Shown: piece by piece, positions 1,529 through 58,640 of the stretch | Layout of the letters: each line of letters starts with the position of its first letter | How positions within the stretch are numbered: the first letter of the stretch is position 1 | Assembly (NCBI GenBank): GCA_016201905.1 | Contig: JACQBQ010000024.1 | Span: 52,919-116,918 of the forward strand | From: Candidatus Melainabacteria bacterium | GTDB taxonomy: Bacteria > Cyanobacteriota > Vampirovibrionia > 2-02-FULL-35-15 | Reading direction: 5' to 3' | DNA length: 64,000 nt | Made by a program: the position numbers and the translations under genes | The notes under the pieces: model-generated | What the model was told of the DNA's origin: nothing | The model's database searches: none | Seen by the model: the letters and a program-made list of their open reading frames with translations, nothing else

Positions 1529-2152
1529 TTAAGACAAAGAAACAGGCACTAAACCCCTAATCGATTTTTTTTGTTTAATTAAATCCCTGATTTGACTACT
1601 TGAGATATTGATAGGTTTTGTGTGAACCAATGACCATTTGAGATTTTTAATCTTTGGAGCTTTTATATTTTTTGAAGGCCTTGGCAACACAAGAAATGTA
1701 ACCAGCTTAGCAAGCTGGATTGGTTTATTCCATGTATTTAATTTCTCAAATTCATCAGCGCCGATTAAGAAATATAGAATTATTTTGTCATTGCGAGCCA
1801 AAGGCGAAGCAAGCCTGATCATTTTGCGTGAATTCAATTGGGATTGCTTCGTCGTCCGCCCAATGTGGACTCCTTGCAATGACAGTATTGTATCAATCGT
1901 ATATGCTGGTTTTCTTTTTTTAATTTCAATGTCTAAAACCTTAAAATATTTTCTCCCTTTAATTGCTCTTTTTACAAGTTCGTATCTAAATTGTGCAGGA
2001 AATAATTTTTGCCTTGATTTATGTGGTGGAATACCACATGGAATAAAATAAACACAAGACAATTTATATTCTTTGCGCGCAGCTTCTGCCATTTTTAGAT
2101 GTCCAACGTGTATTGGATTAAATGTGCCACCGAAGATTCCGATTCGTTTCAT
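1529..2152 (-). CDS. nadD: Nicotinate-nucleotide adenylyltransferase carrying an in-frame insertion of a palindromic repeat element; start placed at MKRIGIFGGTFNPIHVGH
   Basis: GIFGGTFNPIHxGH nucleotidyltransferase motif and YTIDT...FLIGADEF match NadD. The track ORF runs to 2251 only because the repeat upstream reads through in frame. About 32 extra residues lie between YTIDT and LYFLIGAD compared with B. subtilis NadD. Confidence 0.85.
   Translation of the reverse strand: MKRIGIFGGTFNPIHVGHLKMAEAARKEYKLSCVYFIPCGIPPHKSRQKLFPAQFRYELVKRAIKGRKYFKVLDIEIKKRKPAYTIDTILSLQGVHIGRTTKQSQLNSRKMIRLASPLARNDKIILYFLIGADEFEKLNTWNKPIQLAKLVTFLVLPRPSKNIKAPKIKNLKWSLVHTKPINISSSQIRDLIKQKKSIRGLVPVSLS
1787..1883. 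mobile_element. Palindromic MITE-like repeat copy A (GTCATTGCGAG...CTTGCAATGAC), inserted in frame inside nadD
   Basis: Terminal inverted repeats and an internal inverted repeat (cgaagcaa.../...ttgcttcg) are shared with copies at 2156, 27795, 31037 and 58552. The nadD ORF stays open across it. Confidence 0.85.
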
Positions 2153-2155
2153 TAT

Positions 2156-2243
2156 GTCATTGCGAGCCAAAGGCGAAGCAATCCCGATCGTTTTGCGTGA
2201 ATTCACTCGGGATTGCTTCGTTGCTAACGCTCCTTGCAATGAC
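2156..2243. mobile_element. Palindromic MITE-like repeat copy B between the proA stop and the nadD start
   Basis: About 90% identical to copy A. It sits 4 bp upstream of the nadD ATG and produces a spurious in-frame N-terminal extension in the ORF track. Confidence 0.85.
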
Positions 2244-5888: not shown

Positions 5889-7001
5889 CTATGGTTTTAC
5901 AGCAACTTGAATTGCTTGACCAGACTTGTGCATTAAAAATGCTTTTTCTAGTTCTCTTAGCGGCACAGTATGGGTGATTATCTTTTCAGAGATCTTTTCT
6001 TGGAAATTAGTATTATTTAATAGATTTAAGGCGATTTTTACATGCTTTGGAGTATGGTGAAAGACACCTATTAACTTAAGCTCATCGTAATGAATACGAT
6101 ATGTATCAAGTTCAACCTTTGAACCTTTTTTACAGCCACCAAAGAAGTTAACTAAGCCTCCTTTGCTTACAAGTTTTGTTGCTAGTTCCCATGTCTCAGG
6201 CAGGCCAACTGCTTCAATAACTATTTCAGGCCCATTGCCATCGGTTAAATATTTTATTTTTTCAATCAACTCTTGCTCGCTTAGTTCTTCAATATTTAAG
6301 ATATGATCAGCACCAAGTTTTTCAGCAAGCTCTAGCTTGAAGGCATTCCTACCAAGCGAGATTACTTTTGCTCCATTTAATTTTGCAATAGCACAAAACA
6401 TAAGCCCAATTGAACCTGTACCAATTATGCAGACCGTTTTATCGCTTGTAACTTGGGATCTTTCTAAACCATGCACCACTACAGAAAGTCCTTCAAGTGA
6501 CGCTGCTGCTTCAAAGCTAATGTTATCCGGTATTTGATAAGTGTTGTATTGGACTATGTCTGCTGGAACAGCAATATATTCTGCATATGCACCATTTAAA
6601 AAAGACAGATTTTCACATAAGCTAAACTTTTCTTTTGCACAAAAGCCACACTTATAACAAGGAGTAGAATTTAAAGCTACAACTCTTTGACCTGTTGAAA
6701 AGTTTTTTACGTTTCTCCCAACTTTTTCTATGACGCCTGAAAACTGGTGCCCAAAAGTAGAAGGAGTAGACTTAATTAAAATAGGATGGCTTCTTTGAAA
6801 AGTTTTTAAGTCAGTACCACAAGTAAGAGCTACTTTAACTTTCACAAGGATTTCATTGTCTCTTATCTTTGGCGTTGGAACTTTTTCATACCTTATATCA
6901 TGTGGACCATAAAAAAGACATGCATTCATTAGCTCAGGAATTTGTTCAACTGACTCCTCATTAATGAAATTCTCTTTTTCTTTTACCAGGTGCAGTGCCA
7001 T
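5889..7001 (-). CDS. Zinc-dependent medium-chain alcohol/polyol dehydrogenase (sorbitol or threonine dehydrogenase-like)
   Basis: 370 aa. The catalytic-zinc region ALTCGTDLK, the structural-zinc Cys cluster CYKCGFCAKEKFSLC and the GxGxxG Rossmann motif IIGTGSIGL are all present. Confidence 0.85.
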   Translation of the reverse strand: MALHLVKEKENFINEESVEQIPELMNACLFYGPHDIRYEKVPTPKIRDNEILVKVKVALTCGTDLKTFQRSHPILIKSTPSTFGHQFSGVIEKVGRNVKNFSTGQRVVALNSTPCYKCGFCAKEKFSLCENLSFLNGAYAEYIAVPADIVQYNTYQIPDNISFEAAASLEGLSVVVHGLERSQVTSDKTVCIIGTGSIGLMFCAIAKLNGAKVISLGRNAFKLELAEKLGADHILNIEELSEQELIEKIKYLTDGNGPEIVIEAVGLPETWELATKLVSKGGLVNFFGGCKKGSKVELDTYRIHYDELKLIGVFHHTPKHVKIALNLLNNTNFQEKISEKIITHTVPLRELEKAFLMHKSGQAIQVAVKP

Positions 7002-7045
7002 AAGTATTAATATAGCATTCAGGGGTATTAACTAAAATGTGACAC

Positions 7046-7088
7046 GTCATTGCGAGGAGTCTTGAAGAGACGACGAAGCAATCTTCCA
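7046..7088. mobile_element. Truncated half-copy C of the palindromic MITE-like repeat (left TIR plus first internal arm only)
   Basis: acGTCATTGCGAGgagtcttgaagagacgacgaagcaatc matches the left half of the other copies. The right TIR is absent. Confidence 0.7.
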
Positions 7089-7230
7089 ATAGTTTTAAAA
7101 GTAATAGCTTGTTATATAGGTCTTTCCATTCTTTAATTCTTTTGACCAAATCATTAGTAACACCTGTGTAAAGAACAGTTTTAGCTTTACTTGTGAGAAT
7201 TACGACTTTTTTACTTCTTAAACAAACTTA
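7089..7230 (-). pseudogene. GIY-YIG nuclease family small protein remnant with no canonical start, whose C-terminal part is replaced by repeat copy C
   Basis: The minus-strand translation VVILTSKAKTVLYTGVTNDLVKRIKEWK matches the GIY-YIG motif (YxYxL...LYxGxTxxLxxRxxxH). No ATG, GTG or TTG lies between the upstream stop and the motif. The frame runs straight into the repeat. Confidence 0.5.
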
Positions 7231-7937
7231 GTGCTCTCACTAATCAGCGCACCTATATTTTCTAGATATTTTTTTAATTCCATTCCTCTTACTTCTTTTT
7301 GTGTTTCAGTATCAAATGCATAGGCTCCTCTCAAATCGGCTCCTTTCAAGTTGGCTCCTTCTAAGTTGGTTCCTACCAAGTAGGCTCCGCTCAAGTTGGC
7401 TTCGTATAAGTGGGCTTCTATCAAGTTGGCTCCTCTCAAGTTGGTTCTTTCCAGGTTGGCTCCCCTTAAAGGATATTGAGCTTGATTAGAACCTAATGAG
7501 CTACTGATAGCCACTAATAATCTATCTAGGTTTATAAAATTATTATTTATTTTAATGTTTAAAGAAGTAAAATCTATTCCGGATAAATTAAGTGGTTCAT
7601 TTCCTTTTTGTGTTCTAAATGCATTTTCTATTTTATCTAGTACCATTAGTATCTCTGCATTGTTTGCATATTTATTTTTTATTCCAAATGGATCTAGAAA
7701 CCCTGTTTGTACCAAGGTTTTTTCTGCTCTTATTCTTCCTATAGCTTCTTGTGGAAGAATTACTCTTTTTACTTCTTCTAATACTTTATTTGCGTCATCT
7801 GTATTATTTACTTTTGTTCTAACTATTGAATTGAAATAAGAAAAAAACTCCTGACCTAGGCCAGGAGATAAGGTTTCTAAAGCTTTAAATGCTTTTTGTA
7901 CTTTCTCTATACCTGCTACATTTTGTACTAATGCCAT
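7218..7937 (-). CDS. Pentapeptide-repeat protein
   Basis: The C-terminal 70 aa are tandem A(N/D)LxG pentapeptides (RGANLERTNLRGANLIEAHLYEANLSGAYLVGTNLEGANLKGADLRGAY). Visible in DNA as repeated ggctcc(t/g)ctcaagttgg units at 7320-7470. Confidence 0.85.
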   Translation of the reverse strand: MALVQNVAGIEKVQKAFKALETLSPGLGQEFFSYFNSIVRTKVNNTDDANKVLEEVKRVILPQEAIGRIRAEKTLVQTGFLDPFGIKNKYANNAEILMVLDKIENAFRTQKGNEPLNLSGIDFTSLNIKINNNFINLDRLLVAISSSLGSNQAQYPLRGANLERTNLRGANLIEAHLYEANLSGAYLVGTNLEGANLKGADLRGAYAFDTETQKEVRGMELKKYLENIGALISESTKFV

Positions 7938-27794: not shown

Positions 27795-27884
27795 GTCATT
27801 GCGAGAAGCGTTAGCGACGAAGCAATCTCAACAACGTGAGTGAGATTGCCACGTCGTCCGCCTAGGCGGACTTCTCGCAATGAC
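27795..27884. mobile_element. Palindromic MITE-like repeat copy D (hom-aspS intergenic)
   Basis: ACGTCATTGCGAG...CTCGCAATGACGT termini with an internal inverted repeat gacgaagcaatctca/tgagattgccacgtcgtc. Confidence 0.85.
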
Positions 27885-27913
27885 GTTATACGGTAAAATA
27901 AATAATAAATCTA

Positions 27914-30204: not shown

Positions 30205-30633
30205 TTGTGTCAAAGGCACGTTAGGAAATTGAAAAAAAACAAATACAAAAAATATAAACATTGCCTCATCTTAATTGCGCATGGAAGTAAAGAGCTCCAA
30301 TGGCGCAGGCCTTTTGAAAGACTCATCGGTAAATTAAAAAGAGAGCTGCCAGGAGATTACATTTCCATTGCTTACATAGAGTCACTAAAGCCATCGCTTA
30401 GTGAGGTAATGAAGAACTTATCTAATAAAAAAAGTGCAAACTACATAAAATTATTACCTCTTTTTATGGCAGCTGGCTCTCATATAAATCGTGATATAAA
30501 GGAACTTGTTTCTAGAGCTAGAAAGAAATCACCAAAATTAAAAATTGAAGTTCTGCCACCAATTGGCGAACATCCTAAAATAAGCTCAGTAATTTGTGAA
30601 ATAATAAAAGGGTATTTAAATCATGTTAGCTAA
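30205..30633 (+). CDS. CbiX/SirB-like small sirohydrochlorin chelatase domain protein
   Basis: 142 aa. [10 protein letters not shown]...[14 protein letters not shown] resembles the short CbiX(S) chelatase fold, which has a His near the N terminus. Confidence 0.5.
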
Positions 30634-31504
30634 AAGAATTATTCCTTGTTTAGACGTAAAAGATAGGCGTGTCGTCAAAGGCACAAAGTTTCTAGATTTA
30701 AAAGATGCTGGTGATCCTGTAGAGCTTGCAAAGTTCTATAACAAAGAAGGAGCTGATGAGCTTTGTTTTTTAGATATTACAGCAAGTCACGAAGAAAGAA
30801 AAACACTTATTGAAATGGTAGAAGCTGTTGCTCGTGAGGTTTTTATACCATTTACTGTCGGTGGCGGTATTAGCACTACTGAACAAATGAAGAGTATCTT
30901 ACGCGCTGGGGCAGATAAAATCACTATTAATACTGCTGCTATAAAAAATCCAAGACTGATTACAGAAGGAGCCAAAATATTTGGCTCACAGTGTATTGTC
31001 CTAGCTATCGATGCAAAACAGGAGTCCTACGTTAGCACGTCATTGCGAGGAGAGGAGCGACCCGCTTCGCCCGCAAAGCGAGGCGAGCGAAGCAATCTCG
31101 AAAACGCTTATGATATTGCCACGCCTTCTTTGAAGGCTCGCAATGACGTAAAGCGATGGACTGTTTATATAAAAGGTGGGAGAGAAAATACTAATATAGA
31201 TGCTATTGAATGGGCTAAAAAAGCTGTTACCTTAGGCGCTGGTGAAATATTACTTACCAGCATGGACGCAGATGGTACAAAAGCAGGTTATGATATTGAG
31301 CTTACAAAAAAAATCGTTGAAGCTGTAAATGTTCCAGTAATAGCTTCTGGTGGTGCTGGAAAAATTGATGATGTAGTTAATGTATTTAAAAAAACAAACT
31401 GTGATGCTGCACTGTTAGCTTCAATACTCCACTTTAAAGATATTTCAATAAAAGAAATAAAAAATAAATTAAAAGAAGAGTTGGTTTCTGTAAGACTAAA
31501 CTAA
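30623..31504 (+). CDS. hisF: Imidazole glycerol phosphate synthase cyclase subunit HisF, carrying an in-frame insertion of a palindromic repeat element
   Basis: [41 protein letters not shown] and IASGGAG match HisF. About 40 extra residues ([44 protein letters not shown]) lie between AIDAK and the W-containing strand. Confidence 0.92.
31037..31149. mobile_element. Palindromic MITE-like repeat copy F inserted in frame inside hisF
   Basis: ACGTCATTGCGAGG...GCTCGCAATGACGT termini and a GC-rich internal palindrome. The hisF ORF stays open across it. Confidence 0.85.
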
Positions 31505-58543: not shown

Positions 58544-58551
58544 GGCTTTAC

Positions 58552-58640
58552 ACGTCATTGCGAGGAGGTACGATGTACCGACGTGGCAATCTCTAAAACG
58601 TTATTGAGATTGCTTCGTCGCTAACGCTCCTCGCAATGAC
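58552..58640. mobile_element. Palindromic MITE-like repeat copy E abutting the 5' end of the aldehyde dehydrogenase gene
   Basis: ACGTCATTGCGAGG...CCTCGCAATGAC termini. Internal palindrome GTACGATGTACCGACGTGGCAATCTC.../...GAGATTGCTTCGTCG. Confidence 0.85.

Follow-up and report, generated by a model that had tools for sequence, protein, structure and literature searches.

The window analyzed here is a 64-kb stretch of DNA from a Melainabacteria MAG. Within it, a 216-bp spacer between two co-directional genes, which encode a zinc-dependent dehydrogenase (ADH) and a pentapeptide-repeat protein, holds the remnant of a small GIY-YIG nuclease gene and a single hairpin repeat (Table 1). The flanking proteins are numbered consecutively in the database (MBI3590831 and MBI3590832), and therefore no protein is annotated in the spacer. 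Over 6.7 kb around the remnant site, an identical sequence was recovered in an independent Logan assembly of run SRR12113409, so the sequence of the remnant is not peculiar to one assembly. A scan of positions 6800-7400 found no promoter-like site, no terminator-like site, and no Rfam family.

Table 1. Features of the remnant site and Ssn-related motif (SRM) units elsewhere in the window
Feature	Coordinates	Strand	Remarks
Zinc-dependent dehydrogenase (ADH) gene	5889-7001	minus	Residue-for-residue identical to MBI3590831.1
Single SRM hairpin, GTC-ATTGC-GAGGAGTCTTGAAGAGACGACGAA-GCAAT-C	7046-7083	plus	"Half-copy C" of the earlier note
Former 3' end and untranslated spacer, from gene tail to downstream SRM	7084-7101	minus	Ancestral stop codon gone
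C-terminal tail of putative ssnA pseudogene, EWKDLYNKLL	7102-7131	minus	About residues 85-95; in-frame fusion to N block
N-terminal block of putative ssnA (Ssn-family GIY-YIG) pseudogene, KKVVILTSKAKTVLYTGVTNDLVKRIKE	7129-7212	minus	About residues 3-29 of intact 95-aa relatives
Degenerate 5' end	7213-7230	minus	In-frame stop 7230-7228; no start codon; no upstream SRM
Pentapeptide-repeat gene	7218-7937	minus	Residue-for-residue identical to MBI3590832.1; stop codon 7220-7218
Gene-less SRM pair, forward and inverted, 16 nt apart	27795-27884		Arm layout as in SRM-ssnA-SRM, without the gene
Further SRM pair	1787-1883		
Further SRM pair	2156-2243		
Further SRM pair	31039-31147		
Further SRM pair	58554-58640		

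On the minus strand, positions 7212-7102 translate as KKVVILTSKAKTVLYTGVTNDLVKRIKEWKDLYNKLL, and the frame that opens past the in-frame stop reads VCLRSKKVVILTSKAKTVLYTGVTNDLVKRIKEWKDLYNKLLLLKLLEDCFVVSSRLLAMTCHILVN...*. The peptide quoted in an earlier note on this DNA, VVILTSKAKTVLYTGVTNDLVKRIKEWK, maps to 7206-7123. That note had described a gene without a start codon whose frame runs into a repeat half-copy and then into the upstream region of the ADH gene, and both observations hold: no ATG, GTG, or TTG occurs between the stop at 7228-7230 and a TTG at 7149, and the frame crosses the repeat and stays open to 6961, beyond the ADH start. At its upstream end, the remnant is abutted by the stop codon of the pentapeptide-repeat gene. 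At its downstream end, loss of the ancestral stop codon lets the frame read on into the repeat.

The Pfam model PF01541 matched residues 10-34 of the remnant frame with profile positions 6-30 of 78 (E = 7.8e-4). The HMMER comparison with this model proposed in the earlier note thus returned a match, at a score (20.1 bits) that falls short of the gathering score of 22.6. Because Pfam alone was borderline, we relied on searches at the level of the protein family. A search of 5.8 billion proteins yielded 116 matches, all of them proteins of 88-102 aa that carry PF01541 only. Five intact relatives, compared by tblastn with the whole window, had a sole match, at 7206-7108 (E values of 1e-9 to 6e-8), and a profile built from 25 relatives scored the remnant at 37.6 bits over profile positions 6-35. 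The best intact relatives are ~60-70% identical to its N-terminal block. Together, these results bear out that the site holds what is left of a GIY-YIG gene.

Intact relatives share the pattern M..YVYILTN..LYTGVTNDL.RR..EHK, followed by ~55 aa, NPEWKDLYEEL, and a stop; in fuller form, the N-terminal part reads M..YYVYILTNK.KTVLYTGVTNDL.RRVYEHK. The remnant instead ends ...TVLYTGVTNDLVKRIKE-WKDLYNKLL, so that its N-terminal ~30 residues run straight into the C-terminal tail. In a BLASTP comparison with the intact relative P0120, residues 6-33 of that protein matched at an E value of 2e-8 (61% identity in the N block), and a second, collinear HSP covered residues 86-92 (6/7 identical; E = 0.003); the two HSPs overlap on the remnant at E-W-K. 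Residues E85, W86, K87, D88, L89, and Y90 are invariant or nearly so among the relatives, and translation of the window in all six frames (128,000 residues) yields EWKDLY a single time, at 7131-7114. The two-block structure is drawn from these HSPs and from the uniqueness of EWKDLY: MAFFT set the remnant in the alignment without the large gap, and a HMMER run with the family profile recognized the N block but not the tail, whose 10 residues are too few to score by themselves. Relative to the protein of locus L130, ~55 codons (~165 nt) are absent from the middle of the remnant. Since the native tail is kept directly after residue ~29, the missing codons were lost internally and the repeat was not involved. 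Codons ~29 and ~85 were thus brought together by an in-frame internal deletion of ~165 nt. Its junction is E-W-K at 7131-7123, a point of EHK/EWK microhomology, and the deletion may have arisen through slippage or recombination between these similar codon triplets.

The deletion of residues ~30-85 removed Glu64 and Asn83, both invariant in alignment A2, and the GIY tyrosine Y5, near-invariant in the same alignment, is a valine in the remnant (VYI to VVI). We take the family-invariant Glu64 to be the metal-binding glutamate of GIY-YIG. Because of the deletion, the Tyr-to-Val replacement, the absence of Glu64 and Asn83, and the loss of start and stop codons, the remnant is a pseudogene rather than a working family member and cannot make a nuclease; the earlier suggestion that the gene is decaying was correct. 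Its proposal that an intact paralog be sought gave a negative answer within the 64-kb window and in 10 kb upstream, neither of which contains an intact ssnA, and our searches found neither a close intact copy nor an orthologous filled site for the remnant. A metagenome search, whose query was a chimera of the remnant ends and a consensus middle, produced replicate loci and no close relative of the remnant.

A small nuclease of this type has been characterized together with a hairpin repeat. SsnA of Neisseria meningitidis (NMV_0044/NMB0047) is a 94-aa single-domain GIY-YIG protein (CDD cd10448) whose binding to the NTS hairpin repeat (CGTCATTCCCGCGMAVGCGGGAATCYRG) is confined to single-stranded DNA, which it cuts on the upstream side of the hairpin (Chenal et al., Nat Commun 2025, PMC11893778). 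Cleavage depends most on the three nucleotides before the palindrome, and binding depends most on the cytosine after it (PMC11893778). The tested Ssn members, from Neisseria species and Wolbachia pipientis, bind the cognate hairpin and show ssDNA-specific cleavage just upstream of it (PMC11893778). Across bacteria, ssnA homologs have an SRM in their flanks in 71% of cases and on both sides in 42%, and Rickettsia is among the SRM-rich genera (PMC11893778). The same authors noted that NTS-ssnA-NTS resembles an insertion sequence, offering the analogy as a hypothesis only (PMC11893778).

The hairpin beside the remnant has this architecture. In the window SRMs, GTC precedes the ATTGC stem and C follows GCAAT. 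The unit at 7046-7083 reads forward on the plus strand and is thus inverted relative to the minus-strand ssnA remnant; 21 nt separate its edge at 7083 from the family's last profile position at 7105. On the other side of the gene, no SRM half was found near 7207-7330 within 3 mismatches. As the stop codon of the pentapeptide-repeat gene abuts the remnant, the left SRM arm and the start codon have been lost.

Of the eleven SRM units in the window, ten are arranged as five tight inverted pairs, which are full palindromes, and the unit beside the remnant stands alone. The window contains 13 motifs of the GTCATTGCGAGGAG type, where 2.1 would be expected. A scan with a generic pattern (GTC, a 5-nt stem, a loop, the complementary stem, and C) returned 10 units, compared with 2.1 in simulated sequence; nine of the 10 are known SRM units and one is apparently a chance occurrence, while two degenerate copies were missed. 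The SRM class of the window is long and bipartite, GTC-ATTGC-GAGRAG-[variable inner hairpin]-CGACGWRGCAAT-C, with a length of 28-59 nt. The published degenerate SRM string, HGTCWYN(0-2)YYVSBRHN(0-5)WNVSBRGN(0-2)RNCYNB, matches none of the 11 window SRMs and matches at 7 of 83 surveyed loci; ATTGC-type SRMs miss it because their loop is longer than the string allows. The mismatch concerns the search string and not the architecture of the hairpin, and the published motif may under-count SRMs of the ATTGC type whose inner hairpin is long and variable. A literature search with the literal repeat sequence returned unrelated primer matches only.

Folded as isolated ssDNA, the window SRMs are no more stable than shuffled sequence. 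The copies at 7042-7088, 27840-27888, and 58550-58595 can each form one of two stems but not both at once, either ATTGC/GCAAT or (A)CGTC/GACG(T), and ssDNA folding favors the latter in two of these copies. Some pairs lie within coding sequence. The inverted pair at 31039-31147 is in frame within a hisF-like ORF on the plus strand (30623-31504), where the Pfam His_biosynth match is split in two by the insert. Two pairs (1787-1883 and 2156-2243) lie within a cytidylyltransferase-like ORF on the minus strand (1529-2251), in which a 133-position Pfam profile is stretched over residues 39-223; this suggests either in-frame SRM insertions or a read-through ORF. Two independent Logan contigs of the same organism (L164, whose end corresponds to window position ~2183, and L165) stop at or near the pair at 2156-2243, which would be expected of repeats that interrupt short-read assembly, and SRM-adjacent junctions in MAGs merit read-level checking. 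The spacers of the gene-less SRM pairs have only an AAAAC(G)..TATTG-like stretch in common with the 3' flank of ssnA, a resemblance that we judged too weak to claim that the one derives from the other.

To place the site among intact loci, we compared SRM arrangements in 73 genome loci from many phyla and in 54 metagenome loci that served as a replicate. An SRM lies within 250 bp of the gene at 119 of the 127 intact loci (67/73 genome; 52/54 metagenome), and SRMs flank the gene on both sides at 54/73 genome and 42/54 metagenome loci. The nearest upstream SRM is forward in 47/59 genome and 35/44 metagenome cases, and on the downstream side the SRM closest to the gene is inverted in 84/112 (47/62 genome; 37/50 metagenome). 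From gene end to downstream SRM, the median distance is 22 nt at genome loci and 9.5 nt (IQR 4.5-42) at metagenome loci. SRM density is 5.2 per kb beside the gene and 0.39 per kb further off in the genome set; the corresponding values in the metagenome set are 6.3 and 0.45. The ATTGC stem, which is the stem type of the SRMs in our window, accounts for 102 of 190 SRMs at genome loci (the next, ATTCC, for 26) and for 159 of 170 at metagenome loci. A motif-free alignment test of the flanks agrees with this survey: repeats scoring at least 15 were found in inverted orientation at 32 of 76 loci and in direct orientation at 28 of 76, compared with 1 of 67 displaced controls.

Individual loci illustrate the arrangement. 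At L003, L004, L006, L066, and L068, an intact gene lies between GTCATTGCGAG...GCAATC and GATTGC...CTCGCAATGAC; an intact gene likewise stands between a forward and an inverted unit at L001 (Patescibacteria) and at L003, a JGI metagenome contig whose SRM arms are nested three deep. Partial ssnA copies also adjoin an intact cassette or SRM pairs at L001 (1968-2040), L011 (2086-2247), and L056 (1372-1440); at L001, a gene-less SRM pair sits between the intact gene and an N-terminal fragment of a second ssnA copy. Such fossils are therefore common, as these fragments beside SRMs in other genomes indicate.

The survey also ties the remnant's protein family to the Neisseria-type repeat. The NTS itself flanks members of this family, on both sides at L071, upstream at L036, downstream at L045 and L069, and at other loci too. 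The L071 protein, P0120, has the EWKDLY tail and shares 55% identity with P0016, which is among the relatives that best match the N block of the remnant. No Neisseria-named protein appears among the best 120 of at least 7,974 relatives from a search with P0120. The remnant shows homology to single-domain GIY-YIG proteins of ~94-99 aa, belongs to the same protein family as genes flanked by NTS, and has an oriented SRM flank with GTC 5' and C 3' of the stem at 7046-7083; its upstream SRM is missing, and it has neither the intact conserved residues nor the complete ORF of a working Ssn member. It is very probably a decayed ssnA, as judged from the size and domain of the protein, the SRM flanks, and the NTS beside other members of the family. 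The SRM at 7046-7083 is the native right arm, or downstream flank, of the ssnA cassette and not an insertion that cut the gene, because it lies at the standard distance and in the standard orientation and because gene and repeat are a published pair.

Taken as a whole, the site is very probably the fossil of an SRM-ssnA-SRM cassette whose gene was broken by an internal deletion and not by the repeat. The ancestral cassette would have consisted of a forward SRM, an ssnA gene for an Ssn-family GIY-YIG nuclease of ~95 aa, and an inverted SRM. An in-frame deletion of ~165 nt, fusing codon ~29 to codon ~85, took out the stretch that holds Glu64; the 5' end, including start codon and upstream SRM, is gone; the GIY Tyr is Val and the stop codon has mutated; and the downstream SRM persists at its native distance and orientation. 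Because no upstream SRM is left, we infer the full cassette rather than see it. The surviving SRM, together with the ten others in the window, could be a substrate for an intact Ssn protein encoded elsewhere in the genome.

The earlier note had read the same arrangement as the work of a mobile palindromic element that struck an independent small GIY-YIG gene, half of the element replacing the 3' part and so truncating it. Several observations would fit such an event: the GIY-YIG motif and the repeat share one uninterrupted frame, the greater part of the gene has been lost, and SRM pairs lie inside other genes of the window, the hisF-like and the cytidylyltransferase-like ORFs. We nevertheless consider it very improbable, since the tail EWKDLY is kept between the N block and the repeat, which makes the loss internal, and is absent from the other SRM copies, so that it is not part of the repeat unit. 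The repeat also lies at the distance and in the orientation native to intact genes, and the family and the repeat are a known pair; the retained tail already contradicts truncation by the element. The alignment with relatives that the earlier note had called for upheld a remnant gene and, by revealing an N block joined to a native C-terminal tail, told against truncation by the repeat.

A sequence of ssnA origin that still functions, either as a short ORF (for example, from the TTG at 7149) or as a regulatory leader of ADH with the SRM as attenuator or terminator, would account for a 62-aa ORF (7149-6961) that overlaps the ADH start and for the position of the element in the spacer between two co-directional genes. 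It is a slightly poorer candidate still, given that 6800-7400 contains nothing resembling a promoter or a terminator and no match to Rfam, that the SRM hairpin is not thermodynamically stable, that no short protein forms occur among the 116 relatives, and that the ORF is without the GIY-YIG core. The subthreshold Pfam score (20.1 bits against 22.6) could also be taken to mean that the GIY-YIG likeness is a chance match in AT-rich intergenic DNA. That reading is refuted by the tblastn match (E = 1e-9, the only one in the window), the 37.6-bit family-profile score, the fact that 116 of 116 matches from 5.8 billion proteins carry PF01541, the matching second block EWKDLY, and the SRM next to it.

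On the cassette-fossil reading, each half of the "palindromic element" of this window is a hairpin of the SRM type, recognized by a nuclease family already described as ssDNA-specific, which gives a single explanation for all palindromic repeats of the window. The remnant itself is a pseudogenized member of the already known Ssn/SRM system and an ordinary fossil; it is functionless, and its wider value is that of one data point on cassette decay. To the Ssn/SRM system, the window adds an occurrence in a Melainabacteria genome and an SRM class, long and bipartite, that escapes the published search string.

We propose, as a tentative and somewhat doubtful extension, that SRM-ssnA-SRM cassettes may be autonomous mobile units, that tight inverted SRM pairs, those in frame within the hisF-like and cytidylyltransferase-like genes included, may be their gene-less, MITE-like derivatives, and that the remnant at 7046-7212 may be an intermediate caught between the two. 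If this is true, the remnant shows cassettes collapsing by internal deletion towards SRM-only elements. Comparisons within Faecousia/Oscillospiraceae bear on how often cassettes move. The L004, L005, L007, L008, and L013 cassettes share one syntenic position across five species, where their flanks are 72-82% identical, and the L006 cassette lies across the neighboring gene, that is, on its other side, so that five of six compared cassettes are syntenic. The L062 cassette is at an unrelated site, and in two further loci only the gene matched. This mostly syntenic placement argues for stable residence and cautions against assuming frequent transposition.

Among known systems, Ssn/SsnA is the closest. 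The ancestor of the remnant was presumably a single-domain GIY-YIG protein of ~95 aa; oriented hairpin repeats of the form (C)GTC-stem-loop-stem-C stand forward upstream and inverted downstream of such genes; and the same repeats are scattered over the genome, with 11 in this 64-kb window. In contrast to the characterized systems, the gene here is a pseudogene with an internal deletion, no start codon, a Tyr-to-Val change in GIY, and no upstream SRM, and the SRM class is longer, bipartite, and outside the published degenerate string. The window SRMs also occur mostly as tight inverted pairs, some of them in frame inside genes, whereas NTS are reported as rarely intragenic (2%), and the host is a Melainabacteria MAG, from a group without mention in the main text of the published study (PMC11893778).

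The RAYT/REP-BIME (REPIN) and IS200/IS605 systems resemble the cassette in that one small nuclease gene is bracketed by hairpins recognized on ssDNA, and in that the repeats have spread, without the gene, as singlets and inverted doublets; the analogy was drawn by the Ssn authors as well (PMC11893778). Unlike RAYT and IS200/IS605, Ssn is a GIY-YIG nuclease and not an HUH/Y1 transposase, and it is not known to carry out transposition or strand transfer. The intact relatives, which are single-domain proteins of ~95 aa, score 19-20 bits against the group I intron GIY-YIG homing endonuclease model TIGR01453, far below its cutoff of 56, and the remnant has no match to it. The earlier label "YhbQ-like or homing-type" is accordingly imprecise and in its first part only approximately right, the family very probably being Ssn. 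UPF0213/YhbQ proteins are of equal size and have a single GIY-YIG domain; Ssn is probably a different subfamily, and UPF0213/YhbQ is not known to have an EWKDLY tail or SRM flanks. NCBIfam holds no model for the remnant's protein family and the PDB no Ssn structure, and the PDB entries closest to the relatives' profile, 1zg2 (BH0048; E = 2.3e-7) and 1ywl (EF2693; E = 1e-4), are weak matches that indicate relatedness at the superfamily level. Finally, Rickettsia palindromic elements (RPE) are short palindromic repeats able to sit in frame inside protein-coding genes, and the SRM pairs in frame in the hisF-like and cytidylyltransferase-like ORFs of this window recall them.
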